Positions 19,768 to 39,691 of a stretch of DNA of 64,000 nucleotides are shown piece by piece. This DNA comes from Candidatus Eiseniibacteriota bacterium. Lineage in GTDB: Bacteria; Eisenbacteria; RBG-16-71-46; JAFGJU01. Each line of letters opens with the position of its first letter. Positions within the stretch are counted from its first letter, which is position 1. Below the pieces are notes generated by a model. It saw only the letters and a program-made list of their open reading frames with translations. It did not search any database and had not been told where the DNA came from. The DNA is taken from NCBI GenBank assembly GCA_020349905.1, contig CP070702.1:2230936-2294935 (forward strand), given 5' to 3'. The position numbers and the translations under genes are program-made.

Positions 19768-19799
19768 ACAGGATGGATCTGATAGCAGCCTATGAAGTA

Positions 19800-22369: not shown

Positions 22370-25249
22370 CTAATCCAGCGGTTCCCGCCTCACGAGCTTC
22401 ATGACCCTTTCAGCAAGGTATGGAGCGTCAGCGTCGTCCGGATTGATCGCGAGTGCTTTCTCATACTCCCCGAGCTCCTCGCGCAGCCGCCCGGTGATGT
22501 GAAAGAGATGACCCGCCATCACGTGGGTCGTGGCCCTGTAGTAGCGCTCGAGACTCTCCCTGGTTGCGGCCTGCTCCTCCGGCGATGCGCCCAGGTTGAC
22601 GACCAGGCCCTCGGGGAACCGTCTCGCCCTTGCTATCTCCGAGAGGTTCATCCACTCGCCGCGCTCCCGGATCATGTTCCGCGGCGCCCTGAACTCGACC
22701 AGCGGTCTGTCCTCTGTGTTCAGCAACCCCTCACCCACCATATCCTCGATGCCGCTGCCGTGGACGGCCAGGCAGTCCGCGATTGCCAGAGGATCGTTCA
22801 TCCTGACCGAAGCCAGATCAGCGTTCAGTCCCTCGTTCTCCAGCGCAAGACGTACTCTCTCAAGGTCGAGGCGAATGGGCTTCATACTGCCCATCGCCAC
22901 GCTGTATGCCTCGACCGTGTTGTTCATGTACCAGATGATCACGTGCGGAAATGCCGCTTCCAGCGTCCTCACGATCATCTTGTATTCCTCATCCGACAGG
23001 AAATACGTGGGCAACCAGAACGAGAGGATGCCGTCCTCGGTGAGCCGGCTCTTGCAGAGCTCGAAGTACTCCTTGGTATAGAGGCTACCGTTCCCTACGT
23101 AGCGCGGGTGAATCGAGTCTGAGAGGATGATGTCGTATCGCTCGTCAGTCGCCATGACGAAGTTCCTGGCATCCTCGATGACCAGGGAGACTCTCGGATC
23201 GCTGAGAACGTTTTGATTCATGTCCTGAAAGTACAGCGTCGCTGCCCTGATTACCGAGGGAGAGATTTCGACGCAATCGATGCGCTCGATGCTGGGATGG
23301 AGACTGATGGACCAGCAGGTCCCTCCGCTTCCGAAGCCGATCTGCATAACCTTCTTCGGGTCCGGATGCGAAAGAAGCGGAAAGTGAGCCTGCATCTTCT
23401 GTGTCACCAGGAAGCCGAACTTTGTTCCCGCCACGTTTAATCCGTTTATGTCCAGTACCCTGTGACCGCTTTGCGCCTGGTGCACGGTCACGGTCCCGCT
23501 GGCACTTTCGTTCACGTATATGAGTGCCATCCTCTTCTCGGCCGTGGCGTACATGTCGACGAAGACTTCCCGAGGGATGAGAGCGAAGGCGATGAGGACG
23601 GAGGCTGTGCCAGCAATTAGGGAACCAAGCTTCAGAGTCGCGCCCAGGTCACGGCCTTCCACAGACCTTGCCGTCTTGCCGGCCCGTACCGCCTTGCCCC
23701 CCCGTTTCCCGTGGCCCTTCCGTTTGGGCTTACTCCTTACGGTGCCTGCGGCGCCGTCGGGAGACGGGACGGGCGCGAACCACAAAATTACGATTCCGAC
23801 CGCCACGCTTACTGAACCTGTCGAGATGGCGGAAATCCTAACGCCCAGCGCCTCGACCAGGATGAAACTCGCGAGAAATGAACCTGCGATCGCACCGAGC
23901 GTGTTGATGCCGTAAACGTCACCCACACCGCGCCCCACGCGCGCCATGGCCCTCGAGTAAATCTTGGCAGCCAGCGGAAAGCTCGCCCCCATGAGAAAAG
24001 TGGGAACCAGAAGTATCACGAACGCAGCGCCCATCTTCCACATCGTGAATTGCCACCACGGGTCCGGCGTGTCGAGCGAAGTGCCGACTCCGCTCAGACT
24101 GCGCAGGAAAGATTCCCTGAACCCTATCAGCGGGGCAAAGAGAGGAATCAGAATGAGGACAACGATGCCGATGGAAAACTGAAACAGGCCGAAGAGACGA
24201 AGCCCGACACCCGGTCGGTCAAGGTATCTAGAGATGATGGCACTTCCGAGGGTGATTCCGAAAAGGAAACTCATCAGCACGAGGCTAAACGAGTGAACGA
24301 AGTTTCCGAGCACGTACACCATGATGCGCGTCCAGAGTACCTCGTTCGAGAGAGCCGCGAGCCCAGCCACTCCGGCACCCAGGAGGATGAGACGGGCCTC
24401 TCCGGGTAACGCTGCACCTGGGACCTGTACGGCCTTCTCTGCCGCTCCGACTTCCGATTCGCTACGCTGTGACCCGCTGCCCTTGCTGGAGCCTTGCACG
24501 GACGCAGGTGCGGAGGCAGGTGCGGCGACCCTTTCGCCTTCGACAGTCGCAGGTTCGATGGCCGCAATCCGCATTCCAACGGCTATTGCAATGAGCCCTA
24601 CCACTGTATTTATGAGGGCCGCAATGATGGAGGTCGTACGCATCCCCAGGAGTTCGATGAGGAAGAAGCCTGCCGCAAATGTACCCACCACCGCCCCGAA
24701 AGTATTCACAGCGTAAAGAGAGCCAACGGCTGACCCAAGACGCGGGAGCTTCCGCACGGCGAACTTCACGACCACAGGAAGAGTGGCTCCCATGAGCGTC
24801 GTGGGCAGAATGAGCGCCATCGTACAGAGGGCGAACCTGAGGAGCGTGAACGTGAAGAAGGAGGCCGAGAACTTCTGGAACGCAACAACGTGGACGGCGG
24901 TGACACCCTGCAAGATGGTCGGAAAGAAGACCGCGAAGAGCCCTATCACCAATTCCAGAACACCGTAGAGAACGAGAGGTGACATCCTACCGCGGTCCAC
25001 GTATCGTCCGAAGAGGAAGCTTCCGAGCGCAAGCCCGGCCATGAAGGCAGTCACGACGGCACCCATGGCGTAGACCGTGGCTCCGAACGTGGCGACAAGC
25101 ATCCTCGTCCAGACCACCTGGTAGACGAGCGCGCTAGCGCCCGAGAAAAAGAGAAGAACAAGAAGAAGCCAGCGTCTGGACCAGTCGGAGCGACCGGCGC
25201 CACCCTTTGGGTTACTCCGGCCAGCGGGTTTGCGGGAGTCTGTATTCAT
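22370..25249 (-). CDS. fused MFS-like membrane domain / spermidine synthase-like aminopropyltransferase with C-terminal TPR
   Basis: Two 6-TM blocks flank a Lys/Arg-rich loop. The C-terminal soluble domain with GFGSGGT...VEISP..IR.A...F......DPR..L...DAR...Y...D is the spermine/spermidine synthase fold. TPR-like repeats follow. ATG at 25249 gives a clean start; the six-frame ORF extends to 25315. Confidence 0.65.
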   Translation of the reverse strand: MNTDSRKPAGRSNPKGGAGRSDWSRRWLLLVLLFFSGASALVYQVVWTRMLVATFGATVYAMGAVVTAFMAGLALGSFLFGRYVDRGRMSPLVLYGVLELVIGLFAVFFPTILQGVTAVHVVAFQKFSASFFTFTLLRFALCTMALILPTTLMGATLPVVVKFAVRKLPRLGSAVGSLYAVNTFGAVVGTFAAGFFLIELLGMRTTSIIAALINTVVGLIAIAVGMRIAAIEPATVEGERVAAPASAPASVQGSSKGSGSQRSESEVGAAEKAVQVPGAALPGEARLILLGAGVAGLAALSNEVLWTRIMVYVLGNFVHSFSLVLMSFLFGITLGSAIISRYLDRPGVGLRLFGLFQFSIGIVVLILIPLFAPLIGFRESFLRSLSGVGTSLDTPDPWWQFTMWKMGAAFVILLVPTFLMGASFPLAAKIYSRAMARVGRGVGDVYGINTLGAIAGSFLASFILVEALGVRISAISTGSVSVAVGIVILWFAPVPSPDGAAGTVRSKPKRKGHGKRGGKAVRAGKTARSVEGRDLGATLKLGSLIAGTASVLIAFALIPREVFVDMYATAEKRMALIYVNESASGTVTVHQAQSGHRVLDINGLNVAGTKFGFLVTQKMQAHFPLLSHPDPKKVMQIGFGSGGTCWSISLHPSIERIDCVEISPSVIRAATLYFQDMNQNVLSDPRVSLVIEDARNFVMATDERYDIILSDSIHPRYVGNGSLYTKEYFELCKSRLTEDGILSFWLPTYFLSDEEYKMIVRTLEAAFPHVIIWYMNNTVEAYSVAMGSMKPIRLDLERVRLALENEGLNADLASVRMNDPLAIADCLAVHGSGIEDMVGEGLLNTEDRPLVEFRAPRNMIRERGEWMNLSEIARARRFPEGLVVNLGASPEEQAATRESLERYYRATTHVMAGHLFHITGRLREELGEYEKALAINPDDADAPYLAERVMKLVRREPLD

Positions 25250-25327
25250 GTTTGGACCGTCTCCTGTCTGACTCTTCGAACGATGGCCGATTCTAACTAA
25301 CGCCAATCCTCCCAACCCTACCCCGAG

Positions 25328-25661: not shown

Positions 25662-28343
25662 GTGAAGTATTTGCGAACGTTGGCTCTGTGTCTCGCCGTC
25701 ACGTGTGTGGCGACCGCTCCTCTCCTTCTCTCCTCCCTGACCGAGGCCCGCACACCCATCAGAAACGCCTTCTTCAACGTCTACCCTTCTGCCGAAGGCA
25801 CCCGCCTGGACGACCTGGCCAGCAGCCCGACTCACTGCGGGGTGTGCCACTTCGACTTCGACGGAGGCGGGCCCAGGAACCCGTATGGGATTGCAGTGGA
25901 GGTGGCTCGCAACTCCGGAATGTACTCCACGGACGAAGAGGTCATTGCCGCCATAGAAGGCGAGGACTCTGACAACGACGGTTTCTCCAGCCTGATAGAG
26001 ATTACCGACACCGTCAACTTCGACAACACCCCCACCTTTCCAGGACTGAATCAGAACAACATTAGCAGCGTCGTTAATGTGAGCGTTATCGAGATAAATA
26101 CTCATCTCACACCTACTGGCGGCGTTGACACGACCCCTCCCGCAGTTGTAGTGCTCTCTCCGAACGGCGCGGAAAGCTTCGATGCAAGCACCGTCAGAAA
26201 CGTCACCTGGTCTGCGTCCGACGCGAGTGGCATCTCCCACGTGAACATCTACCTTTCTGATGACAACGGCCTCACCTACATGCCGATAGCCAAGGGTAGG
26301 CCCAACGACCAGCCTTTTAGCTGGCACGTGCATAACCTGCCCGGTACGCAGAACCTGATTCGCGTCGTGGCAAAGGACAACGCGGGCAACAGCGGCTTCG
26401 ACGATAGTGACAGTCCTTTCACCATCATCCGCTATCCATTCGGCAGGGTGCCATCGACGCTGCGAGACGTAAGACTTTCCGGGACCCAGCCCTTAGAAGG
26501 CGGAATACTTGAAGACCCGGACGTGAGCTGCATAACCTGCCACGGCAACTACGACGTCGTTGCTGAACCCTGGCACAGCTGGAGAGGCAGCCCGATGGGC
26601 CAGGCAGCAAGGGACCCTCTGTTTCTGGCGTGCCTGGTGACTGCCGAGCAGGCCGCTCCCTCTGTGGGAGACCAGTGCCTTCGCTGTCACACCCCGGGAG
26701 GATGGCAGGAGGGACGCGCCGTCGACACGTTCGGGAACATGATAAACGCCAAGGATCGCCAGGGCGTGCAGTGCGACTTCTGCCACCGTGCCGTGGACCC
26801 TGACTACAAGCTAGGCATAAGTCCCCTGGAGGACGTCGCCGTACTCGACTCCCTGGACGCCATCCCCATGGACTACGCGAACGGCCAGTTCGTCACGGAC
26901 CCCAATCCGTTCAGACGCGGGCCCTTCTTTGACGCAGAGTCCAGCCACGGCTTCCTGGAGTCTCCGTTCCATCGCAAGTCAGAGATGTGCGGCACGTGCC
27001 ACGACGTCAGTAATCCCGTGTACGTGAGGGGTGCGACGCCTGACGAATACGTTCCGAACGCTTTCGATTCTCCGCACCCGGACGGGGATCAAGCCAACAT
27101 GTTCCCGCTTGAACGTACGTTCAGCGAATGGTCCATGAGCGAATATGCTTCCACGGGCGTTTTTGCACCTCAGTTTGCTGGGAACAAGCCGGACGGCATA
27201 GTGTCTACCTGCCAGGACTGCCACATGTCGGACGTTAACGCAAGGGGAGCCAGTGTACCGGGTACTCCGACGCGTCCGGACCTGCCGCTTCACGACTTCA
27301 CGGGAGGCAACTACTTCATCGCCGACATCCTGCCCAGCTTCTACCCCGGAGAGGTCGATTCGCTGAGACTGCTCGACGCCAAACTGAGAGCTATCGCCAT
27401 GCTTCAGAAGGCCGCGAGCATTTCGCTCATAGCGGGAGACGAGCCTCCTCATCTCAAGTTGACCGTGGTCGTGGTGAACGAGACGGGCCACAAGCTGCCC
27501 ACCGGCTATCCGGAAGGCAGGCGCATGTGGCTGAATGTTAAGGTCTACGACGACGAATCTAATCTAGTCTACGAATCTGGTGCCTACGACGAGGAAACTG
27601 CTCTTCTGGGGGACGACCCGGATATCAAGGTCTATCAGATAAAGCCGGGTATTTCTCGCCGGATATCCCCTGTTGTCAGCATCCCGTTCGGGCCGTCGTT
27701 CAATTTTGTCATGAACGACACGCTATTCTCGGACAACCGGATTCCGCCGAGAGGTTTCACCAACGCCAACTTCGAGGCCATACAGTCCCAGCCTATCGCA
27801 TACAGCTATGCAGACGGCCAATTCTCGGACACGACGACGTACCTGGTGCCTCCCACTGCGGTCTTCGCCGAGGTGAAGTTGTACTATCAGACAACGACCA
27901 GGGAATACATCGAGTGGCTGAGAGACCACAACGCCACAAACAGCATGGGACAGGACCTGTTGGACGCCTGGGCCAGGGAGGGAAAGTGCGCTCCGGTAGC
28001 AATGGCGACCGACACGATAAGCCTGCAGCTTCCGGTAGATGTTCCGATCAGAGAGGCCCCCGGCTTCCGCAACGCGCTGTTCCAGAACACACCCAACCCG
28101 TTTAATCCACTTACGAACATCGCCTATTCTCTTGAGTCGGCGGGACGAGTCAGCATCAGGGTCTACGACGTGAGGGGAAGTCTCGTCCGCACTCTGGTGG
28201 ACGCTGTGAAGCAGGCAGGGATGCACGAGGCCCTCTGGGATGGCCGCAGCGACGCGGGTGGGGCCGTCTCATCAGGCGTCTACGTGGTCAGGATGAACGT
28301 GAACGGCTACGAAGCGGTCCGCAAGGCCGTGCTCCTCAAGTGA
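25662..28343 (+). CDS. secreted multiheme (six CxxCH) c-type cytochrome with T9SS C-terminal sorting domain
   Basis: GTG start with GGAGGGAGG RBS. Signal peptide. Heme motifs CGVCH, CITCH, CLRCH, CDFCH, CGTCH, CQDCH. C-terminal 85 aa NTPNPFNPLTNIAYSL...RKAVLLK is homologous to the sorting domains of the two cargo proteins at 7392-10952. Confidence 0.8.
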   Translation: MKYLRTLALCLAVTCVATAPLLLSSLTEARTPIRNAFFNVYPSAEGTRLDDLASSPTHCGVCHFDFDGGGPRNPYGIAVEVARNSGMYSTDEEVIAAIEGEDSDNDGFSSLIEITDTVNFDNTPTFPGLNQNNISSVVNVSVIEINTHLTPTGGVDTTPPAVVVLSPNGAESFDASTVRNVTWSASDASGISHVNIYLSDDNGLTYMPIAKGRPNDQPFSWHVHNLPGTQNLIRVVAKDNAGNSGFDDSDSPFTIIRYPFGRVPSTLRDVRLSGTQPLEGGILEDPDVSCITCHGNYDVVAEPWHSWRGSPMGQAARDPLFLACLVTAEQAAPSVGDQCLRCHTPGGWQEGRAVDTFGNMINAKDRQGVQCDFCHRAVDPDYKLGISPLEDVAVLDSLDAIPMDYANGQFVTDPNPFRRGPFFDAESSHGFLESPFHRKSEMCGTCHDVSNPVYVRGATPDEYVPNAFDSPHPDGDQANMFPLERTFSEWSMSEYASTGVFAPQFAGNKPDGIVSTCQDCHMSDVNARGASVPGTPTRPDLPLHDFTGGNYFIADILPSFYPGEVDSLRLLDAKLRAIAMLQKAASISLIAGDEPPHLKLTVVVVNETGHKLPTGYPEGRRMWLNVKVYDDESNLVYESGAYDEETALLGDDPDIKVYQIKPGISRRISPVVSIPFGPSFNFVMNDTLFSDNRIPPRGFTNANFEAIQSQPIAYSYADGQFSDTTTYLVPPTAVFAEVKLYYQTTTREYIEWLRDHNATNSMGQDLLDAWAREGKCAPVAMATDTISLQLPVDVPIREAPGFRNALFQNTPNPFNPLTNIAYSLESAGRVSIRVYDVRGSLVRTLVDAVKQAGMHEALWDGRSDAGGAVSSGVYVVRMNVNGYEAVRKAVLLK

Positions 28344-28586: not shown

Positions 28587-28615
28587 TTGACGCGATGGGC
28601 GGTTTGTGATATAAT
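28587..28615 (+). promoter_or_regulatory. near-consensus sigma70-type promoter (TTGACG-17-TGaTATAAT) upstream of the Cys-rich protein operon
   Basis: Same architecture and flanks (GTGxTATAATAAA) as the promoter at 25477-25505. About 140-nt leader to ATG 28755. Confidence 0.5.
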
Positions 28616-28754: not shown

Positions 28755-29525
28755 ATGAAGAAGGCTATGGGAATTCTCCTCGGCCTGATGTGCGTTGCGT
28801 TCCTCGTGAGCCTCCTCGTTACACCTCAACCCAGGATTCAGCACAGAGGCTCTTCCGCCTTCGACGTGGCCCTAGAGCGGGCCGTTGACAGATTGGAAGG
28901 CACCGGCAGGTTCGTCCTTGCCGGAACGGCCACCCCTGTCGACGCACAGCTGCAGCCCACGTTCGATGGCAGATACACCTGCGATACGTATGAGGCGGCG
29001 ATGACCACGTGTGACCCGGCGCAGCCAGGATGCCTAACACACACAGCCGACCCAATGGGTCACACATGCGTGGCGGGTGAGTACACGTGCCAGGTGGCAA
29101 CGTGCGACACCTACGACAGGCAGCAGTATACGTGCGATCCCGCCAACGCAGACTGTCCCACTGCTACTCACACGTCTGAACCGTCGCCCTACAATCACAC
29201 TTGCGAAGGCCACACCTGTGACGGTGCCTTCACCTGTGATTTTACGGTTGACCCGCGTGCTTGGACCTGCGATGCGGCTGACGTCGACTGCCAGGACGTG
29301 ACGTTTAATGCGTTTATCTCAACGTGTGACCCGATGAAACCGGAGTGCCGCGAGAGCAATCCAGACCACTGTACCGCAGAAGGTTACTTCACGTGTATCG
29401 TGACAGAGGTAACCTGCGACCCGCTCGATCCCAACTGTCCGACCATCGATCCGAGACCGGGTTGCGCCACTGCGACAGAGCACACGACCTGGGGACAGCT
29501 CAAGACCCTACACATGAGGGAGTAG
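28755..29525 (+). CDS. secreted cysteine-rich repeat protein (about 25 Cys; repeated [YF]TC[DQ]x7-9TCDPxxPxC units)
   Basis: RBS GGGGGTGA. Signal peptide MKKAMGILLGLMCVAFLVSLLV. The mature part is dominated by 'TCD' tripeptides arranged in 4-5 degenerate repeats. No recognisable catalytic motif. Confidence 0.7.
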   Translation: MKKAMGILLGLMCVAFLVSLLVTPQPRIQHRGSSAFDVALERAVDRLEGTGRFVLAGTATPVDAQLQPTFDGRYTCDTYEAAMTTCDPAQPGCLTHTADPMGHTCVAGEYTCQVATCDTYDRQQYTCDPANADCPTATHTSEPSPYNHTCEGHTCDGAFTCDFTVDPRAWTCDAADVDCQDVTFNAFISTCDPMKPECRESNPDHCTAEGYFTCIVTEVTCDPLDPNCPTIDPRPGCATATEHTTWGQLKTLHMRE

Positions 29526-29672
29526 GACTCCCCGGGCAACGGCCAGAATTCGGGGGAGAAACCCCAGCTGTTTCTTCCCCGGATTTTTTTATTCCTGCCG
29601 CACGCATGAAGGGGTGTGGTAATATCGAAGCGCTCGTCTGGAGAGCGCGTCGCTGTTCGCTCAAGGTGACCA

Positions 29673-32099
29673 ATGAGAATGTGGACCCGAAACATCTCGT
29701 TTCTCTTTCTCGTCGGCGCCTCAACGAGGTCTCTCGGTCTACTGAGTGGTGACCTCTACGAGATACTCTCTTTCTTAGGCTTCCTGGTCTTCGCCTCCAC
29801 GTTTCGCCTGGGCCTGCTGAACGCCGGCGACGGGGGTCTCTTCCGGCTCATCTCAGCATTTTTTCTCGCAGGGGCAGGCATAGCCCTGTTCAGGTGGGGG
29901 GAGACAGGACTCCTTCCGCTGTATGTTTTTCTGTCAATATCGCTTCTGCTGCTTTTTTGGCGGAGAGAGTCTGAGGACGTCAGGCACCTGGAAAGCTACG
30001 TCCTGGCTCTGGCGTGCGTTGCGTTCCTAGGCGGGTTGGTGCGACTGCTTCCGGTTCTCTGGCACGCAGAGACAGACCTGGCTTCTCTCTTATCGTGGAC
30101 GGCGGAGAAGCTTGCCGAGGAAGACCGGGCCCTGGGGGCCACGACCATGGCGATGCCTCTTCTGGCGGCACTCTTGTTCCTCCTGTTCGTGCGGGAGGCG
30201 GCAGCTGAGAGCCGCCGCCATTCCCGGTGGATAGCCGGGGCCTTGGTTCTGGTGGCCGTCCACGTCTTCTACCTGGTCTTCCTGAAATACTACGCCCGCT
30301 GGATAACCTCTCACCGCCCGACTTGGGACTGGTTGATTCTCAATTCCCAGCACCTGTTTCTGATTCTGGGGAGCGTCGCCTTCACACTCATTGACAGAGG
30401 CAGGACAGTACGCTCCTTGATGCCCGCGTACTTCTGGCGAGCCGGCTACGTCTCAGCGGCCTTGTTTGTGGTGGCAGTGGTTGTTGCGCTGGCGCTGGCC
30501 TGGGCTCCGGCCCCCACGCACCGGCCGTACTGTGTGATGGTGTACGACGCCGGGTATCTCAACTGGAAGATTCCCGTCCACGGCACGTACGGAGAGCGTA
30601 GCGCGGGCATGTTCGGGATGTTTCCGTCGGCGCTGGAGGCCGCAGGTCTGGACGTCATCGCCTCGAATGACCTGACGCTTCTGGATTCACCGGCGGCGCC
30701 GGACTGCGTCGTAATGATAAACATCCAGGAGTATCTCGAGGAGGAGGAGAGGGAGAGGATCTGGAAGTTTGTCTCCGAGGGCGGGGGCCTGCTCTGCCTG
30801 GGTGACCACACCGGTGTGGCGGGCATCAGGGGTCCGTTTAACGACCTGCTCGAACCGGTGGGCATCCGGTTTCGATTCGACAGCTCCACGTTCTTCGGAC
30901 AGGGGTGGAACGAGGCTCTGGACTTCCGCCCGCACCCGCTCAACCGGGGCGTAGAGACGGCCGAAGATTTCCAGATATGGGTCGGCGCAACGCTAGACCT
31001 GGACATTGCTGCACGTCCCGTCGTAATCGGCCGCTACGGGTATTCCGACATAGGCGACGCCGCCAACATCGAGCGCTCCTATCTCGGCGACCGCAGGTAC
31101 AATCCCAACGAGCTTCTGGGTGACGTGGTGCTCGTGGCCGACGCTCGCTTCGGCAAGGGCAAGGTCCTGGTGTTCGGGGACACATCGGGCTACCAGAATC
31201 TCTCCCTTGTGCGCACTCTGGATTCGGTCGTCCGGTCGCTGGACTACTTGAGCGCCGGCGAGAGGTTCGGCCCCGGCGCTCTTGCGCAGGTCGGCTTACT
31301 TGTGTTGCTCCTTCTTCTCGTCACCGCTGGAGCCGCGTACGTCAAGAACCCCCTGCCCATCATCGCGGCGGCCCTGGGGGTGATTGTAGGGTCGGCGCTG
31401 TGTCAACTTGCTACACCCACGCCCAAACAGCTGACTCCGGCCTTCCTGGATGAGAGCCCCGAGTTCTCCTTCTCTCCAACGCCCCACGTCAAGAGGGAAC
31501 TCGCCGTGATGGACGTTTCTCACGGTGGTCACCACACGTTGCGGGGCTGGAAGGACAAGAGCATAGGCGGGCTTCAATTGAACCTGGCGCGGAACGGATA
31601 CTTCCCGTTGCTCAGGCCCGAGTTTCCTTACCAGGACCTCGAACGCGGGGCGGCTCTGCTTGTCATCATGGCTCCGACCCGCGTTTACAGCGAGAGAGAG
31701 ATAGATGCAATCGAGAAGTTTCTGAGAAGCGGCGGAAGGGTGATAATAAGTGTGGGCTTCGAGGAGCTTCGCGCCTCCGAAGGACTTCTCAACCGTTTCG
31801 GCCTCAGCGTGGCGAACGTGCCGCTGGGGCGACTCGAGGTCGCCTCCGAGGGCGACAGTCCCGGGATTCTGTTCCGGGAGGGATGGCCGGTTCTCTTCGA
31901 CAGCGGCGCTCCGGTGGAGGTCATGGTGTCTGAGTGGAACTACCCGCTCGTCGTGAGGAAGCCTGTCGGGGCGGGCAACATAATTCTCATCGGGGACAGC
32001 TCCTTTTTCCACGACGCGAATCTTGAAACGCGTGAACACTATTTCGAGGGGAACGTGGCGTTCTTCAGGCGACTCATCGAGCTTGGAAAAACGAAATGA
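29673..32099 (+). CDS. large polytopic membrane protein (about 9 N-terminal TM helices plus 2 internal TM helices) carrying two GldG/GATase1-like extracytoplasmic domains; paralog A
   Basis: Hydrophobicity pattern. Two soluble domains with motifs CVVMINIQEYL...FVSEGGGLLCLGDHTG and LLVIMAPTRVYSEREIDAIEKFLRSGGRVIISVG...NIILIGDSSFFHD. These resemble the GldG / 'ABC-type uncharacterized transport system' family pattern (VLVIAGP..FS..E...L..FV..GG.L). Paralogous to the next gene. Confidence 0.6.
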   Translation: MRMWTRNISFLFLVGASTRSLGLLSGDLYEILSFLGFLVFASTFRLGLLNAGDGGLFRLISAFFLAGAGIALFRWGETGLLPLYVFLSISLLLLFWRRESEDVRHLESYVLALACVAFLGGLVRLLPVLWHAETDLASLLSWTAEKLAEEDRALGATTMAMPLLAALLFLLFVREAAAESRRHSRWIAGALVLVAVHVFYLVFLKYYARWITSHRPTWDWLILNSQHLFLILGSVAFTLIDRGRTVRSLMPAYFWRAGYVSAALFVVAVVVALALAWAPAPTHRPYCVMVYDAGYLNWKIPVHGTYGERSAGMFGMFPSALEAAGLDVIASNDLTLLDSPAAPDCVVMINIQEYLEEEERERIWKFVSEGGGLLCLGDHTGVAGIRGPFNDLLEPVGIRFRFDSSTFFGQGWNEALDFRPHPLNRGVETAEDFQIWVGATLDLDIAARPVVIGRYGYSDIGDAANIERSYLGDRRYNPNELLGDVVLVADARFGKGKVLVFGDTSGYQNLSLVRTLDSVVRSLDYLSAGERFGPGALAQVGLLVLLLLLVTAGAAYVKNPLPIIAAALGVIVGSALCQLATPTPKQLTPAFLDESPEFSFSPTPHVKRELAVMDVSHGGHHTLRGWKDKSIGGLQLNLARNGYFPLLRPEFPYQDLERGAALLVIMAPTRVYSEREIDAIEKFLRSGGRVIISVGFEELRASEGLLNRFGLSVANVPLGRLEVASEGDSPGILFREGWPVLFDSGAPVEVMVSEWNYPLVVRKPVGAGNIILIGDSSFFHDANLETREHYFEGNVAFFRRLIELGKTK

Positions 32100-34714
32100 C
32101 CGCAGTCTGGATTGGCATACTCGTTCTGGCGTTCTCGTGGCTCAAAGCGCTTCCTCTATTTGAAGACGCCGGCGGCTCTTTGCCGTGGTTTCTGGTCGGA
32201 GTGCTCCTGGTAGTCTTCGGGCTTCGCAATCAGAACTTCTGGCAAGACGGACCGCGAAAGGGTCCTGCGGTGGCCGTTCTCGTTTCCTCCATGGTGGCGA
32301 TTGCCTGGCTGGGTGATCCTTTCCGGACGGGATTCCTTCTGCTGGCACTGGCTGCCCTTCTCACGCTGCTTCCTGTGCCGCGCGCAGCTGCACGGTGGGC
32401 CCTGCCGGGATTATGGTTCTCCGGAATGGTGTGCGTACTGCAGGCGGCGTGCGTCCCTCTTCTTTACTCGTTCTGCGCCCGTTATCACCAGACCGCCGAG
32501 CTGCCGTTCCTGCACGACCTGGTGTCCGGATTTCCGTCCTTCCCGTGGCTGGCGACATTGCTCTACGTCCCCCTCAAGATACTGAATCCCGACACGGCCC
32601 TTGGCGGGGCTACTCTGTATATGCCCGCCAGCGTGGACGTGATAGCGTTGACTCCCACCTGGGAGAAGCTGGGCCTCATCCCGGCCGTTCTCTTTGGGGC
32701 CGGCGCCGCTCCGCTCCTGCTCCTTCGCCCCGACTGGCGCAGGCGGTTGGGTGGGCTGCTGTTCTGGACGGCCCTCTTCCTGTACGTACGTCTTGTGCTC
32801 CTCTTCCTGCTGGTCGCCCACACGAGAAACGAGCGCGCCTTCTGGCTCTTTGACTTCGTCTTCCTGAGCTTCTTTCCGCTCGCCCTTTTGCTCGCGGCCT
32901 GGTGGCATCGGGGCTCTTCGGCTCCTGAGTCGCCTGAGCCCTCGGAGGTCGGGCCTCTCAGGTCGGGCAGGAAACGCTTCCTGGCCTGGCTGGCGGGTCC
33001 CGAGGAGAGCGAGAGTCATTTTGACGCGAGGCTCAGAACGGCACGTGTGCTCGTCGCGACGTTTCTCTTCGCAGGCGGGCTCACTGCGTTCTGGGGATTT
33101 CACGACGCGGGGATTCCGAAGGCCGGCCGCATTCTCATCGACGAAGGCCACAGCGACTGGGAGTGGACGACCGAACCCTTCGACACTCTCACGTACGGGG
33201 GAAAGTCTGGCTACAACTACTACTGTCTTGCCGATTACTGGAATCACTTCTACAGCGTGGAGACCCGAAGAGACAGCTTGACGTCCGAACTTCTGGCAGG
33301 TTGGGACGTCCTAGTCATAAAGACGCCCACGTCGGCTTTCTCGAAACAAGAAGTAGACGCCATCGAGGGTTTTGTCCGGCAGGGGGGCGGACTCTTTCTC
33401 ATAGGTGACCACACCAACGTATTCGGAACCAGTACGTATCTCAATGCTATCGCCGAACGGTTCGGAATGTACTTCAGATACGACGCCACCTACACCCTGG
33501 CCTCGCTCGGCCTCAGTCTCTTCGAGCGCCCGCATCGGTTTGCTCATCCGGTGATTCGTTTCATGCCCGATTACCTGTTTGCCACCTCGTGCACGATGTA
33601 TTCCCCTCCCCTGTCGGAGAACGTCATCCTTGGATACGGGCTTCGGGCCATGTACCTGGACTACTCGGAGGTGAGCTACTTTCCGACCAAGCAAGAGAAG
33701 TGGGACTACGATTTCGGGCTCTTCGTCCAGGCCGGAGGCGTGAGATTCGGCAAGGGCAGAGTCCTGGGTTTCACCGACAGCACCTGTTTTTCGAACTTCT
33801 TCATGTTCATGCCGGGAAAGCCAGAGCTGGCTCTGGCGTCCCTGGAATGGCTGAACAGAACGAACAGATGGTCGTGGCGCTACAGAATTTTCCTCCTCAC
33901 TTCACTTATCGGACTCGTGCTGCTCGTCATCGAGGCGCGTCGCAACACGGGCCTGTCCTTCTGGCAGGGAGTGATCGTATCGGGTACGTTGACGGTCGTA
34001 GTCCTTGGAGCCATCACCGAATCGCAGGTCGCCCGTTCCTACGCTCTGCCGCAGCCGCACCGTCCCCCGATCTACATCACCTTTGACCACGAACACGGGA
34101 ACTACCTGATCCCCGCCGAGACTCTGCCCGTCTCCAACTGGCAGAACTTCCAGACGTTCTACGTCTGGACCCAGCGCATGGGACTCGTTCCCAGAGACGA
34201 GAGCTCCCTGGAGGGAGCGGTCCGGAACAGCCGCGCTCTCGTGGAGATTCACCCCTACCGTTCCTTCTCCATCGAGGAGATAGACCTTGTCGTAGATTTC
34301 GTGCGGCGGGGAGGAACGCTCGTCGTGCTGGATTCCCCCGACAACTTCCGCAGTTCTGCGAAAACGCTCCTGGGGCCCTTCAGCGTATACTTTGACGGGG
34401 AGGTGGCTGATTCCCTGGCCGTGCTCGACGCTCAGGGCGACACCCTGGGAGTGCCGCGACGGGCCGTCGGTGTTAGAGGCGTGGCTCCCCTTCTTACGCT
34501 GGGTGACGGCCGGACTGTCATGGGCTACCGGCCCTTCGGAAAAGGTAGGGTCGTCGCGTGTGGGGCGTCGTACCTCTTCTGCTCGGAGTCCATGGGAAAC
34601 ACAGCCGTCGTACCGAACGCCCGGCAGAGGCGCGTCTTCAGGGCAGAGTACGACGTCTTTGAGAAGGTGGCCGGCCTGCGTGTGCGGGGACGTTACTACC
34701 TTCCTGACGAATAG
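32096..34714 (+). CDS. paralog B of the preceding membrane protein (same N-terminal TM module plus two GldG/GATase1-like domains)
   Basis: Start ATG overlaps the previous stop (ATGA at 32096-32099), indicating translational coupling. Domain motifs DVLVIKTPTSAFSKQEVDAIEGFVRQGGGLFLIGDHTNVFG and LVEIHPYRSFSIEEIDLVVDFVRRGGTLVVLDSPDNF are collinear with paralog A. Confidence 0.6.
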   Translation: MTAVWIGILVLAFSWLKALPLFEDAGGSLPWFLVGVLLVVFGLRNQNFWQDGPRKGPAVAVLVSSMVAIAWLGDPFRTGFLLLALAALLTLLPVPRAAARWALPGLWFSGMVCVLQAACVPLLYSFCARYHQTAELPFLHDLVSGFPSFPWLATLLYVPLKILNPDTALGGATLYMPASVDVIALTPTWEKLGLIPAVLFGAGAAPLLLLRPDWRRRLGGLLFWTALFLYVRLVLLFLLVAHTRNERAFWLFDFVFLSFFPLALLLAAWWHRGSSAPESPEPSEVGPLRSGRKRFLAWLAGPEESESHFDARLRTARVLVATFLFAGGLTAFWGFHDAGIPKAGRILIDEGHSDWEWTTEPFDTLTYGGKSGYNYYCLADYWNHFYSVETRRDSLTSELLAGWDVLVIKTPTSAFSKQEVDAIEGFVRQGGGLFLIGDHTNVFGTSTYLNAIAERFGMYFRYDATYTLASLGLSLFERPHRFAHPVIRFMPDYLFATSCTMYSPPLSENVILGYGLRAMYLDYSEVSYFPTKQEKWDYDFGLFVQAGGVRFGKGRVLGFTDSTCFSNFFMFMPGKPELALASLEWLNRTNRWSWRYRIFLLTSLIGLVLLVIEARRNTGLSFWQGVIVSGTLTVVVLGAITESQVARSYALPQPHRPPIYITFDHEHGNYLIPAETLPVSNWQNFQTFYVWTQRMGLVPRDESSLEGAVRNSRALVEIHPYRSFSIEEIDLVVDFVRRGGTLVVLDSPDNFRSSAKTLLGPFSVYFDGEVADSLAVLDAQGDTLGVPRRAVGVRGVAPLLTLGDGRTVMGYRPFGKGRVVACGASYLFCSESMGNTAVVPNARQRRVFRAEYDVFEKVAGLRVRGRYYLPDE

Positions 34715-34742
34715 CGGAGAGAGATGCCGCAGGGTTACACAG

Positions 34743-34862
34743 ACACGAGGGGATGGTTCGGATGCCACCTGGAACAAAGACACGCAGGGGTGCTCGGATG
34801 CCCCCAGGACACGGACACGCAGGGGTGCTCGGACGCCCCCAGGACACGGACACGCAGGGGTG
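34743..34862. repeat. tandem direct repeat, about 3.4 copies of a 35-bp unit (GACACGCAGGGGTGCTCGGATGCCCCCAGGACACG)
   Basis: Two near-perfect copies at 34779-34813 and 34814-34848. A truncated third copy and a degenerate leading copy flank them. It sits in the 150-nt gap between membrane protein B and the next gene. Confidence 0.75.
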
Positions 34863-34867
34863 ACCAG

Positions 34868-35674
34868 ATGTTGCGTATGAAACTGATGGCGAGCATTCTC
34901 GCAACGCTCGTGGCTCTTGCGGGCGCCCCGGGCGATGGGAGGACCGGCCGCGTTGGTGAAACTCCGTCTGCTGCGGCCGCGGGTACCGATTCGGGGCGCG
35001 TGAACTACAGCCCGCCGTTCGACCCGAAGGATTTCGTTGAGCACGTCGACAATCCCTACTTTCCCCTCACGCCAGGAACGACGCGCCTGTATGCCTTGAG
35101 GACCGAAGAAGACCTCGGGGCAGTTGAGGAGTTTGTCACCTTTGACACGAAGACCATCCTGGGCGTCAAGACCACAGTGGTGCTCAGCAAAGAGATGATG
35201 GGAGGGGCTCTCGTCGAACAGACCTCGGACTGGTATGCACAGGACAAGCACGGCAACGTATGGTACTTCGGCGAGTACTCCGAGCATTACAGGGACGGAG
35301 AATTTCTTGGCACTCGCGGCTCATGGGAGGCGGGCAAGGACGACGTGCAACCCGGAATCATCATGCCCGCCAATCCCAGAATACGAATGACCTACAGGCA
35401 GGAATGCCGCATCGGCGAGGCAGAAGACTTTGCAGAGGTGCTGAGTCGTTCGAAGCGGGTCTCCGTGCCGTACGGGACCTTCGAGAAGTGCCTTCAGACG
35501 GCTGAGTGGACCCCGCTAGAACCCGGAGGCAGGGAGTTCAAGTACTACGCGCCCGGCGTAGGACTCGTCCTGGAAGTCGAACCCGGGGACAACGAAACCC
35601 GCCTCGAGCTGGCGGCCGTGTCGCCCCCGGGTGGAATGATCGAGGTCGACAGCTTGACGAAGAAAGCCCGCTAG
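34868..35674 (+). CDS. secreted protein of unknown function
   Basis: Signal peptide MLRMKLMASILATLVALAGAPG after a GGGGTGA SD. The six-frame ORF starts further upstream at 34724 but that extension is the repeat array. No recognisable motifs. Confidence 0.55.
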   Translation: MLRMKLMASILATLVALAGAPGDGRTGRVGETPSAAAAGTDSGRVNYSPPFDPKDFVEHVDNPYFPLTPGTTRLYALRTEEDLGAVEEFVTFDTKTILGVKTTVVLSKEMMGGALVEQTSDWYAQDKHGNVWYFGEYSEHYRDGEFLGTRGSWEAGKDDVQPGIIMPANPRIRMTYRQECRIGEAEDFAEVLSRSKRVSVPYGTFEKCLQTAEWTPLEPGGREFKYYAPGVGLVLEVEPGDNETRLELAAVSPPGGMIEVDSLTKKAR

Positions 35675-36993
35675 ACACCCGCAACAACGACGTCCGCAAA
35701 GACCAGGCTGGGCGTACGTCGCGAGGAGTATACCCACGGGTCGTTTGCCACTTCTATGAGCCGGGGCCAGAACTTGAGCTGGTTGTCTGCGATGTTCATC
35801 TCGGCCACTGCCTGAGTGGGCTTGCCGTCCTCGAAGAGGTGGCCGAAGATTCCAATCGAAGCATCCCCGGTCGTTGAGTTGGAATTCCCTCCTATGAATC
35901 CCGTGATGTATATCCCTCTTCCCAGGTCCTTCATTATCTCCGCCACGGATCTCTTTCCGGGAGGGATGATGAGGTTCGAAGAACCCCCGGTCGTGGGTTC
36001 GCAGTCCAGCTTGCGGCTGTAGTACCAGTCGACATAGAAATCCTTGAGCACGCCCGATTCGATCATGACTCGCTTCTTCGCCGCGAAACCGTCCCCGTCG
36101 AATAACCGGCTGCCCAAACCTCCGACAAGTAGCGGATCATCGATCAGCGTAAGATGCTCGCTCGCGACCTTCTGACCCTTCTTGTCTGCTAGGAAGGACC
36201 GCTTCTGGTGGATGTTCCAACCGCTCATCGCTTCCAGCAACGCGCCCAGCAGTGTGGGAACGTTTCGATTCTCCACAATGATGGGTAGCGTCTCAGTCTT
36301 GAGCTTCTTGGCGCCCAGAAGGCTCAGGGTCCGCCTGGCGGCGACGGCTCCGATTTCTCCGGGCGAGGGCATCTTCCTCCGGGCCACAGAAGCCACGAAA
36401 TTGTAGCCGGCGGGCCTGCGATCTCCCTCGTCCTGTGCGGTGACGCGGGCTCCGGCCCAGTAGGAGGTGCCGTTTGCGTAGCCCTCGAAACCGTTACTGG
36501 TAAGAACTACCCTCTCCTCGTGGGTATCCTGGGCCATGGCGGTCACGGTGATGATCTTCTCGCCCCCCTCTGTGAGGCAGGCCTCTTCGATGGTCTTCAC
36601 CGAGTCGTGCCGGTCACCAGCGGTGAGCTGAGGGTAGTCCGGGTCGATTATTTTCAAGTCCACATCCGCCCTGCCTTCGTAGTACTTGGGGTCTGGCAGA
36701 GCGCGATACGGGTCCTCGGCCAGAAGTCCTGTCGTGGCCACGGCCTTGGCGATGAAGTCCGTGAGGGCGTTCCGTCGCAAATCGGACGTGCTCTGGGCCG
36801 AATAGCGACCCTTCGCGAAGATTTCGACGACAAGCTCCCTGGTCGAGGCCTCCTTTATGTTCTCGGGCTTGCGTTCCCTGTAGCTCATCTGAACGAATCG
36901 CTCTCCGGAAATCCCGACGCGACAATTGTCGGCACCGGACGACAGAGCTGTCTTGACCGACCATCCGGCCAGGTCATGAAGTTCCTTGTTCAT
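35671..36993 (-). CDS. pmbA: PmbA/TldE-family metallopeptidase component
   Basis: 440 aa TldD/PmbA-fold protein lacking the HExxxH motif, paired with the adjacent TldD gene. Confidence 0.65.
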   Translation of the reverse strand: MNKELHDLAGWSVKTALSSGADNCRVGISGERFVQMSYRERKPENIKEASTRELVVEIFAKGRYSAQSTSDLRRNALTDFIAKAVATTGLLAEDPYRALPDPKYYEGRADVDLKIIDPDYPQLTAGDRHDSVKTIEEACLTEGGEKIITVTAMAQDTHEERVVLTSNGFEGYANGTSYWAGARVTAQDEGDRRPAGYNFVASVARRKMPSPGEIGAVAARRTLSLLGAKKLKTETLPIIVENRNVPTLLGALLEAMSGWNIHQKRSFLADKKGQKVASEHLTLIDDPLLVGGLGSRLFDGDGFAAKKRVMIESGVLKDFYVDWYYSRKLDCEPTTGGSSNLIIPPGKRSVAEIMKDLGRGIYITGFIGGNSNSTTGDASIGIFGHLFEDGKPTQAVAEMNIADNQLKFWPRLIEVANDPWVYSSRRTPSLVFADVVVAGV

Positions 36994-37005
36994 CCTCTCT
37001 CTCCT

Positions 37006-38535
37006 TTATCCTTTCACACCGCCGACAGTCATGGACTTGACCAGGATAGTAGGCTGACCGAAGCTGGCCGGTATCGACTGGCCGCCCTTTCCACACGAGC
37101 CAGCGCCACTTTTCGCCAGCTCCATGTCGTTCGCCACCATGATGACGTTTTGCAGCATCTTCGGCCCGTTGCCCATTATGTTGATGTCCTTTATCGGGGC
37201 CCCGAGTTTGCCGTTCTCTATCATCCTTCCCTGTGAGACGTAGAACGCAAAGTCCCCCTCCCCTATTCTCACTTCCCCGTTGCTCACGTCCTGGACGTAG
37301 ATGCCTCTATCGACGCTTCGTATGACGTCGTCGGGTGTGGCAGGGCCGGGGAGCATGTATGTGTTGCGCATTCGCGGCTGAACGAAGTGTTGATAGCTCT
37401 CGCGGCGACCGTTGCCGGTCGAGGCAACGTTGTAGTGCTTGGCTGAGATATTGTCGTGCATGTAGCTCGTGAGAATCCCGTCCTGCACCAGCACGGTTCT
37501 CTCAGATGGAGTCCCCTCATCATCGACGTTGATGGAGCCCAGTTGACCGGGAATCGTGCCGTCGTCGATTATCGTCACGAAGGGCTCCGCCACCTTTTTC
37601 CCTATCATGGTGGAGTAAGTGGACATCTTCTTTCGATTGAAGTCGGCCTCCATCCCGTGTCCGATGGCCTCGTGAAGCAGCACACCCGTGACTCCAGGCC
37701 CCAGAACCACTGGCATCTCACCTGCCGGGGGCTGGATGGCGTCGAAGAGGGTAACAGCGCGCTGGACCGAAGTTTCTGCAACCTCTTCGACCACAGCATC
37801 TGTGTAGAAGGAAAAGTCCCTTCGGCCACCCAGGTTCCACCATGCGCTCTCCCTCCTGCCGTCCTTCTCCGCAACCACGGAGGCGTACAGGTAATTCCTG
37901 GGCTGGAGATCCTCGACCTTCGAACCATCGCTCGTCAGAATCAGTACCCGCTTCTGCTGGTCGTGAAATCCAGCGTTCACCTTGACCACGTGGGGCGAGG
38001 AGGCGAAGCAGCGGTCGTTGACAGACTGGACGAGCGGCAGCTTGGACTCCAGTGGGACTATCGTGAGCAGCGTCTCAAGCGGGTAGTAGTCCTTGAGCTT
38101 CAGCTCCTTGAACTCCTCCCGCAGCTGGCGGGGGCCGGAGTCTGCTATCGAAGCGGCTGTGGAAGCGGCGTTCAGCATGGACTTCTCCGCCAGCTCTTGC
38201 GTGAAGCCGTAGCCGACCTGGTCGCCCTTCACAGTACGAATACCAACGCCCAGTGCCACGTCACAATACGCCCGGTTGACCTGGCCGTCCTCCAGCAGGA
38301 CCCAGTTCCCGATGGTGTGCTCGAAGTATAAGTCGGCGTAGTCGCCTCCCTTTGAAAGGGCCTCGGCAAGCACCCTCCTGCAAAGGGCGTCCGTGATGCC
38401 GAACTCGCGTTCGAAGTAGCCGGACGCGTCCGTGCTTCCGAGGCCGAACAGACTTCTGGGAAAAGAGGCGGCTATGGCGGCGGTCACTGCCACGGCGGAC
38501 GTCTTGAGAAAACAGCGTCTACTCATTGATTCCAT
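37006..38535 (-). CDS. tldD: TldD-family metallopeptidase with Tat signal peptide
   Basis: Start MESMSRRCFLKTSAVAVTAAIAASF (twin-arginine motif SRRCFLK) with GGAGGG SD. HEAIGH zinc motif (LLHEAIGHGMEADF). TldD-like length. Confidence 0.7.
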   Translation of the reverse strand: MESMSRRCFLKTSAVAVTAAIAASFPRSLFGLGSTDASGYFEREFGITDALCRRVLAEALSKGGDYADLYFEHTIGNWVLLEDGQVNRAYCDVALGVGIRTVKGDQVGYGFTQELAEKSMLNAASTAASIADSGPRQLREEFKELKLKDYYPLETLLTIVPLESKLPLVQSVNDRCFASSPHVVKVNAGFHDQQKRVLILTSDGSKVEDLQPRNYLYASVVAEKDGRRESAWWNLGGRRDFSFYTDAVVEEVAETSVQRAVTLFDAIQPPAGEMPVVLGPGVTGVLLHEAIGHGMEADFNRKKMSTYSTMIGKKVAEPFVTIIDDGTIPGQLGSINVDDEGTPSERTVLVQDGILTSYMHDNISAKHYNVASTGNGRRESYQHFVQPRMRNTYMLPGPATPDDVIRSVDRGIYVQDVSNGEVRIGEGDFAFYVSQGRMIENGKLGAPIKDINIMGNGPKMLQNVIMVANDMELAKSGAGSCGKGGQSIPASFGQPTILVKSMTVGGVKG

Positions 38536-38905
38536 GTGTCCCTCCTCTTGCTCATATGAAGTATGAACGCGCAGGAAAAGCCTACGCTCATTACTACGCA
38601 CTTGCCACAGTTTTTGGTTCCCCTGTTGATCGCCTCCCCCCAGGATTCCTTCCGCCCGCCATTTCGGCCTGAAAGTGCGCCATTTGCGCTCCCAAAGCAG
38701 GCCGGAGGACGACCATCTTTCCCTTGCAACCGCGGGCCTTTTTGGCTACGGTGCAAGTGCACTGACGACCCTCTCGTGACATCGAGCGGCTGCGCGCCGT
38801 ATCGAGAACGGTCGAAGCTGCTGCTCCTCGCAGTGCTTGTGCCCGGTCGGGAGTGGGCTTCATCGGGCGAGCACTCGCAGTGAGCGGAAAGGTAACTCTG
38901 TCAAT

Positions 38906-39691
38906 ATGGCCTCTTCTCCGAAAACCATCGTCGTGATGCCGGCCTACAACGCCGAGACCACCCTGGAACAGACTCTGGCCGACATGCCGGACGGTGCCGC
39001 GGACGAGATCATTCTGGTCGACGATTGCAGCACGGACGGAAGCGCTGAGCTGGCACGAAAGCTGGGTCTCACGGTGATACAGCATGAGAAGAACATGGGA
39101 TACGGGGCCAATCAGAAGACCTGCTATCGTGAGGCGCTCAAACGAGACGCGGACGTCATAGTAATGATTCACCCCGATTACCAGTACGATTCCAGCCTGC
39201 TGTCAATAATGGCGGAACTTCTCATGAAGGAGCACTGCGACGTGCTGCTCGGAAACAGGATAAGGACACGCAAGGAGGCCCTGGACGGAGGCATGCCGTT
39301 CTACAAGTACATCGCCAACCGGGGTCTCACCATGATAGAGAACATCTGGCTGGGACAGAACCTGGGCGAGTTCCATTCTGGGATGCGGGGCTACCGCAGG
39401 GTAGTGCTGGAGACGATCCCCTGGGAGAGCAATAGCGACGATTTCGTGTTCGACAGCCAGTTTCTAGTGCAGGCCGTGCACTTCGGCTTTCGCCTCGGCG
39501 ACATCCCCGTGCCCGTGCGGTACATGAAGGAGGCGAGCAGCATCAACTTCCGGCGAAGCACGACGTACGGACTCGAGACTCTCCGGACTCTTCTGTCCTT
39601 CTCGTTACACCGCGCCGGGCTGGCACGGAGTCCCCTCTTTCTGGGCCGAGAGACCAGTAGCCAAGATGAAGCTCAGGGACAGCGCGACTGA
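38906..39691 (+). CDS. family 2 glycosyltransferase (polyprenol-phosphate sugar synthase-like, DPM1/ArnC type)
   Basis: [10 protein letters not shown]...[10 protein letters not shown]...D..V.M..D pattern of GT2 dolichol-P-mannose/undecaprenyl-P-sugar synthases. Start ATG 38906. Confidence 0.7.

Follow-up and report, generated by a model that had tools for sequence, protein, structure and literature searches.

The window analysed here, 64 000 nucleotides (nt) of contig CP070702.1 from a Candidatus Eiseniibacteriota bacterium, carries two overlapping open reading frames (ORFs), A and B, whose products, judged by sequence comparison, are ancient true paralogs with internally duplicated domains of the GIFT/GldG superfamily. 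Just upstream of them lies a gene for a secreted protein rich in cysteine and threonine (hereafter the partner). An earlier reading of this DNA (the first-pass annotation) had missed this conserved third gene, and its presence points to a three-gene envelope system as the unit rather than an accessory of an ATP-binding cassette (ABC) transporter. We propose, tentatively and with somewhat less than even confidence, that A and B form a heteromeric envelope complex which handles the co-encoded repeat protein through an N-terminal motif, using four external GIFT domains.

ORFs A and B were found exactly where the first-pass annotation had placed them (Table 1), joined as it described by an ATGA at 32096-32099 shared by the TGA stop codon of A and the ATG start codon of B. 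Its claim of paralogy also held: the pairwise alignment that it suggested as a check gave a BLASTP match of E 2e-19, with 24% identity over 459 aligned amino acids (aa), collinear from soluble domain 1 (D1) to the C-terminus. Family alignments of 52 (A) and 54 (B) sequences were then divided into parts that were compared profile to profile by hhalign. D1 of A matched D1 of B with a probability of 99.7% (E 5e-27), soluble domain 2 (D2) of A matched D2 of B with 99.3% (E 4e-20), and D1 matched D2 inside each of the two proteins with 98-99%. Sequence kinship between the two N-terminal membrane modules was not detected by hhalign (probability 4.8%); their homology at the level of sequence was rejected on this ground, and the collinearity claimed earlier for the two proteins stands only from D1 onwards. 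One of the signature stretches cited for that collinearity, 'LVI..P...FS..EIDAIE.F.R.GG', pairs D2 of A with D1 of B (second high-scoring pair in BLASTP) and therefore reflects the internal duplication. All 240 homologs retrieved by BLAST sort cleanly into either the A family or the B family, which indicates that the A/B duplication is old.

When genomes were scanned with the B profile, 79 loci were found, distributed among the bacterial phyla Latescibacterota, Gemmatimonadota, Krumholzibacteriota, Eisenbacteria, Zixibacteria, Chloroflexota and Desulfobacterota, the further bacterial groups Bacillota, Planctomycetota, Verrucomicrobia, Ignavibacteriota, Armatimonadia, Acidobacteriota and Fusobacterium, and the archaeal Methanobacteriota; the spread of the A-B pair amounts to more than 15 phyla plus these archaea. 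Among the 73 loci with enough upstream DNA, B is immediately preceded by A in 67, with a 4-nt overlap in 23 loci and a gap of 20 nt or less in at least 42. This order and spacing make it very likely, as far as gene arrangement can tell, that A and B are co-translated partners. The exceptions form a small clade of B homologs with no upstream A (loci L042, L048, L055, L058 and L076, the B homolog standing at about 6000-9500 in each). Varying combinations of ORFs resembling GT2 and GT4 glycosyltransferases and multi-transmembrane (multi-TM) flippases, named here from their sequences, adjoin B in four of these five loci, and a conserved protein of about 1035 aa adjoins it in three. This clade may be a functionally distinct offshoot.

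The products of A and B share a common plan, in which a nine-helix membrane module is followed by GIFT domain D1, a two-helix hairpin and GIFT domain D2. This plan emerges from hydropathy and from AlphaFold2 models (predicted local distance difference test, pLDDT, 89.9 and predicted TM-score, pTM, 0.89 for A; 88.7 and 0.89 for B), and it bears out the four-domain layout described in the first-pass annotation, which had also called for a topology prediction. Lysine and arginine residues (K+R) were counted per loop over all family members. With the N-terminus inside, the five short loops predicted to be cytoplasmic hold 8.6 K+R in the A family and 7.6 in the B family, against 0.85 and 1.8 in the three short loops predicted to be outside; this bias places D1 and D2 outside the cytoplasm. 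Independent support for this placement comes from longer B homologs, which carry surface-type Ig-like domains (SdrD_B, CarboxypepD_reg or SpaA) C-terminal to D2. D1 and D2 of both proteins are thus predicted to be extracytoplasmic.

Both membrane modules are modelled as nine helices with an outer loop after helix 5, and residues W15, Q116, H131, E190 (in TWEKLG), R232 and W250 are conserved in that of B. No Pfam family was found for ten N-terminal modules searched at E values up to 10, a sequence-profile search gave no PDB match for the modules, and the 50 best Foldseek matches in the PDB for each model all concern the soluble domains. A profile of the B module retrieved 530 cluster representatives among 1.84 billion; in nearly all of them, fragments aside, the module is N-terminal in a protein of 810-900 aa with the same architecture, and the B module therefore makes up a fixed unit with the GIFT domains. 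Alternative fusions of the module were considered as a clue to function and abandoned, as the module is almost confined to this architecture and, among the longer proteins checked, the few with an added known family have gained surface Ig-like domains. An exosortase reading of TWEKLG and R232 was also dropped in view of the negative Pfam result with the ten modules. In addition, and in contrast with exosortases and archaeosortases, the membrane module has no conserved Cys and the tag of the partner is N-terminal, not a C-terminal tag of the PEP-CTERM type.

The soluble domains belong to recognised families. Both proteins exceed the Pfam gathering cut-offs for ABC_transp_aux (PF09822; 43.6 bits for A and 46.2 for B, cut-off 34.7) and DUF4350 (PF14258; 63.3 and 42.1 bits, cut-off 30.4), and B exceeds that for IFT52_GIFT (PF23355; 36.9 bits, cut-off 27.2), with A just under it (25.2). 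Together with the homology of D1 and D2, these scores uphold the earlier description of duplicated GldG-like domains. The best match, in structure as in sequence, is the GIFT domain of IFT52 (PDB profile search, E down to 7e-10; Foldseek to 5fmr and 5fms, E 8e-8 to 1e-6, target-normalised TM-score 0.61-0.72), followed by the middle domain of GH42/GH164, which resembles class 1 glutamine amidotransferases (GATase1), by ThuA-like proteins and by domain 4 of site-1 protease (S1P). Foldseek also matched the human oligosaccharyltransferase (OST) chains 6s7t_G and 8b6l_N (E 1.5e-5), which we take to be OST48. Among the 50 best matches listed per model, no solved chain covers more than about one-fifth of either model. 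Neither A nor B matched the OST48/Wbp1 family PF03345, and a single B homolog, P0271, gave a weak match to OST48_N (23.2 bits against a cut-off of 36).

Glutamine amidotransferases use a Cys-His-Glu triad; the first-pass annotation had named cytoplasmic soluble domains with clear catalytic triads, for example of this enzyme class, as evidence that would tell against its reading. Alignment conservation revealed no such triad in the A or B family, and a catalytic glutamine amidotransferase is thus ruled out. Conserved Cys is absent from the A family and confined in the B family to C499, which is conserved at 98%. The equivalent of the GATase nucleophile elbow, located from the secondary structure of the models just after the GGGL(F)L(I)G strand, is an invariant Asp-His-Thr in D1 of both proteins; in B, the DHTN at 438-441 directly follows a beta-strand and precedes a helix. 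D1 of B (B-D1) is by far the best-conserved region: its invariant polar or aromatic residues number more than 20, and its conserved positions include D349, E350, H352, S353, H484, C499, R555 and D561-S562-T563.

The partner and 37 close relatives match no Pfam or NCBIfam family, and the relatives are all annotated as 'hypothetical'; several of them are on contigs equal in length to contigs with A/B hits. The gene is kept beside A-B in a Latescibacterota genome (L001, 9100-9876; E 2e-126, 67% identity). What is retained in a bacterium farther removed (L002, 8789-9745; E 3e-13) is limited to the motif at the N-terminus, the richness in Cys and the tail; partners are also found in L005 (6835-7407), L004 (12631-13731) and many other loci. 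Across loci, the neighbours of A-B are repeatedly found to be secreted proteins with wholly different repeats (TCxxTC..., CTxGxxCT..., YTTDxxLWPECG..., TCNGxx...) and with cleavable signal peptides, as predicted from their sequences. They contain on average 8.3% Cys and 13.4% Thr, TC and CT dipeptides are two to three times more frequent than expected, the most frequent spacings between Cys residues are 4 and 6, CxxC being almost absent, and N-x-S/T sequons show no enrichment over the approximate chance level. Their C-termini are anchors typical of the lineage, namely a type IX secretion system (T9SS) tail, SLH domains, PD40 repeats, or a TM helix with a basic tail. Partners of the FCB type often end in [ST]-W-G-x-[IVL]-K-x2-[FY]; the ending is TTWGQLKTLHMRE in the window (29487-29525) and recurs in L002, L005, L011, L016, L022 and L067. 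The TTWGxxK tail was considered as the local T9SS-type sorting part and rejected, since the three FlgD_ig/T9SS-tail C-terminal domains examined in the window start with a different motif, QNxPNPFNP.

The only conserved feature of the partners is a short, amphipathic leader motif, S-[SP]-[AL]-F-x2-[AS]-L-x2-[AST]-[VIL]-x2-[LM]-[EDQ], which lies 5-15 residues past an AxA-type cleavage site. A 26-residue profile built from an alignment of 30 partners was run on all ORFs of the loci. It matched 45 of the 1610 ORFs situated within 2.5 kb of an A-B pair and none of the 1636 situated farther away (Fisher p 1e-14); when only non-seed matches were counted, 15 were near and none far (p 2e-5). In the 64-kb window the partner was the sole match (E 1.2e-7). 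Of the 54 loci flanked on each side by 1.5 kb or more, 36 contain an ORF with the motif, and weaker matches occur in a further three. The partner is upstream in FCB-type bacteria, Chloroflexota and Desulfobacterota; in Bacillota it is usually downstream, overlapping B.

Some loci depart from this pattern. In Planctomycetota (L003, Phycisphaerales; L077, 80-1384) the leader profile found no match; the genes just upstream of A (L003, 5436-8696 and 8869-9915) encode a Cys-rich protein (1086 aa, 13% Cys) and a TPR protein that contains 'SSLYDSTLREAY', which may be a divergent form of the partner. In a Methanobacteriota locus (L069, 9611-10270) the ORF downstream of A-B has a signal peptide and 'ESPLFTVRTQRSI' with 0.9% Cys; the leader motif may be separable from the Cys-rich repeats. 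The ORF that follows B in the window (34724-35674) was rejected as a fourth component, as it is not conserved in any related locus, and it is probably outside the cassette.

Transcription signals were sought by consensus scan, which found a promoter-like site upstream of the partner gene and none between the hairpin described next and A. The space between the partner gene and A holds a GC-rich hairpin followed by a T-run, resembling an intrinsic terminator or attenuator. A comparably strong hairpin (dG -23 to -44 kcal/mol per 50 nt) is present in 17 of the 18 loci that have the partner upstream, and Rfam contains no known RNA family matching the partner-to-A spacer. Such a layout would be consistent with the partner being highly expressed and with attenuation of the read-through into A-B.

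In the mechanism that we favour, A and B would be the two subunits of a heteromeric, ATP-independent complex of the cytoplasmic membrane. Each subunit would contribute 11 TM helices (nine plus the hairpin), and the pair would put four non-amidotransferase GIFT domains on the outer face of this membrane. One promoter would serve all three genes, and the hairpin past the partner gene would let only some transcripts pass into A-B, yielding much substrate and little machine. The partner would be exported by Sec, its N-terminal motif would then dock on the extracytoplasmic GIFT platform, and A/B would hold or mature the repeat protein, or pass it to a lineage-specific surface anchor. Anchoring, folding of a disulfide-rich solenoid, removal of the leader and some other modification are all candidate outcomes for the partner.

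This mechanism is supported by the observed paralogy, the shared four-part architecture and the A-then-B adjacency; by the observed linkage of the motif-bearing partner (36/54 loci; 45 matches vs 0), its signal peptides and its surface anchors; and by the hairpin in 17/18 loci with a promoter-like site only upstream of the partner. The predicted topology and folds agree with it, and the yeast OST subunit Wbp1, like OST48, provides a precedent for a GIFT platform on a non-cytoplasmic face (PMC7226087). Several points weigh against it. The position of the GIFT domains is itself a prediction, and we infer the physical A-B heteromer, the binding of the partner by its motif and the outcome for the partner. 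About one-third of the well-flanked loci have no detectable partner gene nearby, and the B-only clade does without A, among glycosyltransferase and flippase genes. Lastly, B-D1 is conserved far beyond the need of a passive docking surface (more than 20 invariant residues, Cys499 at 98%), and this extreme conservation hints at catalysis or at the binding of a complex ligand.

Catalysis by B-D1 is the core of an alternative that we find less probable than the docking complex and on balance unlikely, in which A/B is an extracytoplasmic enzyme, A being a degenerate partner of B, that chemically processes the partner protein. Examples would be sortase- or propeptidase-like cleavage or transfer of the leader via Cys499, His439 or His484, or an action on Cys or Thr. 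The conserved residues listed above, with DHTN 438-441, make B-D1 the best-conserved part of the system; the A family retains GDHT and has no conserved Cys, as expected of a pseudo-enzyme partner; the partners share only the leader-like motif and the Cys/Thr-rich repeats with their excess of TC/CT; and the order of substrate, hairpin and machinery recalls operons made of a precursor and its processing enzyme. However, no kinship with a peptidase, sortase, exosortase, thiol oxidoreductase or glycosyltransferase was found in Pfam, NCBIfam or the PDB, and to our knowledge the GIFT-type structures matched (IFT52, OST48, the GH42 middle domain and S1P domain 4) are non-catalytic.

A bolder proposal, which we regard as improbable, is that of a new and widespread prokaryotic system for the sorting or maturation of surface proteins, in which the N-terminal SP(L/A)F helix of a Cys/Thr-rich repeat protein would be captured by the A/B heterodimer after Sec export and loss of the signal peptide, and B-D1 (Asp438-His439, Cys499) would remove or transfer the leader or act on thiols. 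If true, it would be an N-terminal-tag counterpart to the C-terminal-tag systems (sortase, exosortase, T9SS), with a range that extends over more than 15 phyla of bacteria and includes archaea related to methanogens.

The fold matches to OST48-type chains, with the weak OST48_N match in one B homolog, raise another possibility, to which we give as little credence as to the sorting system: A/B might be functionally analogous to an accessory of OST or GT-C and handle lipid-linked glycans or polysaccharides. A polyprenyl-linked sugar would be bound by the membrane modules and glycan by the GIFT domains, and the Thr/Ser-rich partner would be glycosylated. The B membrane module has conserved polar residues (Q116, H131, E190 and R232) in its interior or at its outer boundary, partners contain 13% Thr, the window has GT2 and PMT_2 genes 4-5 kb further downstream and L005 also has a PMT_2 gene, and the B-only clade is found within glycosyltransferase clusters. 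On the other hand, A and B match none of the GT-C, STT3/PglB, PglL and WaaL families, the N-x-S/T sequons of the partners remain at about the chance level, and the glycosyltransferase neighbours are inconsistent across loci.

The first-pass annotation had associated the GIFT fold with auxiliary components of ABC-type exporters, and this link was not borne out. A search for ORFs with Walker A and LSGGQ motifs found no ABC ATPase in the window, an ABC ATPase-like ORF lies within 7-10 kb in 1 of 86 related loci, and six neighbourhoods of A-B annotated with Pfam contain no ABC transporter. GldG, an ABC auxiliary in the gliding motility of Flavobacterium, has a homologous GIFT-type soluble domain outside the cytoplasmic membrane, but orthology is ruled out by the GldG equivalog TIGR03521 (cut-off 389.85 bits), which A did not match and for which B scored 16.9 bits in a stretch of 50 residues. 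Moreover, no gldA/gldF-type ABC genes are linked to A and B, and GldG is known to have terminal membrane anchors only, whereas A and B form an obligate paralog pair in which each protein brings two GIFT domains and its own 11-helix membrane domain. It is thus very doubtful that A and B are GldG-like auxiliaries of an exporter encoded elsewhere, which would export polysaccharide or another substrate with GIFT domains as sugar binders, in spite of the PF09822 scores, the weak local match to TIGR03521, the sugar binding proposed for GIFT domains (PMC7226087) and polysaccharide genes near some loci (Wzy, Wza and Wzz in L006; GT2, GT4 and flippase in the B-only loci), the sole recurrent neighbour being the Cys-rich protein. 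The labels 'ABC transporter auxiliary' and 'Gldg family' tend to be given to proteins of this kind in spite of the lack of an ABC partner, and a likely annotation error is corrected here.

Comparison with known systems gives partial resemblances. IFT52, the closest match of the soluble domains, is a cytoplasmic subunit of eukaryotic intraflagellar transport, with one GIFT domain (N-terminal) and no membrane part. Pilin-usher and lantibiotic lanA-type operons encode an abundant precursor, followed by a hairpin and by processing or assembly genes. A-B loci resemble them in the order of substrate gene, strong hairpin and machinery and in the short leader conserved in a hypervariable substrate, but the A-B partner is a Sec-exported protein of 150-1000 aa, not a small cytoplasmic peptide, and the cassette holds no known family of modification enzyme, peptidase or transporter. 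Yeast Wbp1, the OST48 equivalent, has two luminal domains and is recognised as a GIFT protein (PMC7226087). As in A and B, the GIFT-like domains of OST48/Wbp1 are in tandem, on the non-cytoplasmic face and TM-anchored, and they are thought to be a docking or recruiting platform for substrates leaving the Sec translocon (PMC7226087). OST48 differs in having a single TM helix and in its association with catalytic STT3, its resemblance to A/B being at fold level only; no STT3/PglB-type gene was present in the window or in the six Pfam-annotated neighbourhoods. Archaeal DUF4350 proteins of arCOG01314 have been predicted to form a secretion or membrane-remodelling complex (Makarova et al. 2015, PMC5898192), which is the nearest published idea. 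They share with A/B a DUF4350/GldG-like extracellular domain, and it was proposed, from gene neighbourhood alone, that they assemble into homo- or heteromeric complexes of the envelope that act on surface proteins (PMC5898192). Their build is different, with a signal peptide and one C-terminal TM helix, as are their partners, MoxR-type AAA+ ATPases and vWA proteins, none of which is linked to A-B.

The GIFT/GldG/DUF4350 domain superfamily is known, and bacteria and archaea as well as eukaryotes (IFT52, OST48) commonly have such domains. Pfam and NCBIfam in their 2025-2026 copies cover neither the obligate pairing of A with B, nor the architecture of 11 TM helices and two GIFT domains, nor the membrane modules, nor the leader-tagged partner, and no description of the A-B-partner cassette was found in the searchable literature on DUF4350, PF09822, GIFT/GldG or cysteine-rich repeats. 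A 2026 'CysRRep' preprint appears to treat a repeat other than that of the partner. The A/B family is a tractable case, as it combines a fixed two-subunit membrane pair with a linked candidate client bearing a short motif. We know of no prokaryotic member of the GIFT/GldG/DUF4350 superfamily with a defined molecular role. If the link with the partner is functional, A/B would be a new envelope system, mostly of uncultured lineages from anaerobic habitats and sediments, with unusual Cys/Thr-rich surface clients.

Table 1. Features of the partner-A-B cassette and its flanks (positions in the window)
Feature	Position	Strand	Description
Promoter-like site	28587..28615	+	TTGACG-17-TATAAT with TG; about 140 nt upstream of partner; consensus scan 11/12, consensus match only
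Partner gene	28755..29525	+	256 aa; signal peptide, 'TCDPxxPxC'-type Cys/Thr-rich repeats, C-terminal TTWGQLK tail
Leader motif	28851..28901	+	SSAFDVALERAVDRLEG; partner residues 33-49, just after signal peptide
Hairpin and T-run	29545..29597	+	GC-rich, intrinsic-terminator/attenuator-like; 18-pair stem, dG -25 kcal/mol; between partner and A
ORF A	29673..32099	+	808 aa; 100% identical to JSW03_09745, 'hypothetical protein', of a Candidatus Eiseniibacteriota metagenome-assembled genome
A membrane module	29673..30521	+	Residues 1-283; nine predicted TM helices, N-terminus inside; hydropathy, AlphaFold2, positive-inside count
A soluble domain 1	30522..31262	+	Residues 284-530; GIFT/GATase1-like; invariant G377-D378-H379-T380 and G502-D503-T504
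A TM hairpin	31263..31418	+	Residues 531-582; two helices; hydropathy, AlphaFold2
A soluble domain 2	31419..32096	+	Residues 583-808; DUF4350/GIFT; Pfam DUF4350 63.3 bits vs 30.4, hhalign
ORF B	32096..34714	+	872 aa; 100% identical to JSW03_09750, 'hypothetical'
B membrane module	32096..33097	+	Residues 1-334; nine TM helices; structured outer loop 130-193
B soluble domain 1	33098..33874	+	Residues 335-593; motifs DExHSxWEW, GYNYY, KTPT, GGGLFLIGDHTNVFG, ATSC (C499), FTDSTxFSN
B TM hairpin	33875..34039	+	Residues 594-648; two helices; hydropathy, AlphaFold2
B soluble domain 2	34040..34711	+	Residues 649-872; DUF4350/GIFT
316-aa ORF	34724-35674	+	10 nt after B; no Pfam family; start probably Met49, before a signal peptide

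Other genes of the window were identified on both sides of the cassette. Upstream, 25662-28343 (+) encodes an 893-aa secreted protein, possibly an extracellular multihaem cytochrome, which has Ig-like domains, a C-terminal sorting domain of the FlgD_ig/T9SS type and weak matches of the MtrC/MtrF-like and cytochrome c7 kinds, and 22370-25315 (-) encodes a 981-aa fusion of MFS-type transporter and spermine/spermidine synthase domains. On the other side, a TldD/PmbA metallopeptidase pair (35671-38601, -) converges on the cassette, and the GT2 and PMT_2 (GT-C type) membrane glycosyltransferase genes mentioned above follow (38837-41276, +). Genes for B12-binding radical SAM proteins are found about 6-15 kb from the cassette both in the window (15168-16556, -) and in a Dehalococcoidales locus (L004, 1480-2883), a proximity that is probably a coincidence. 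Elsewhere in the window (166-247, -; 7392-10952, -; 11456-13795, +; 16621-21377, -) there are a tRNA, two proteins with FlgD_ig/T9SS tails, a TPR-repeat Ser/Thr kinase, and an RND efflux pump accompanied by an outer-membrane factor.

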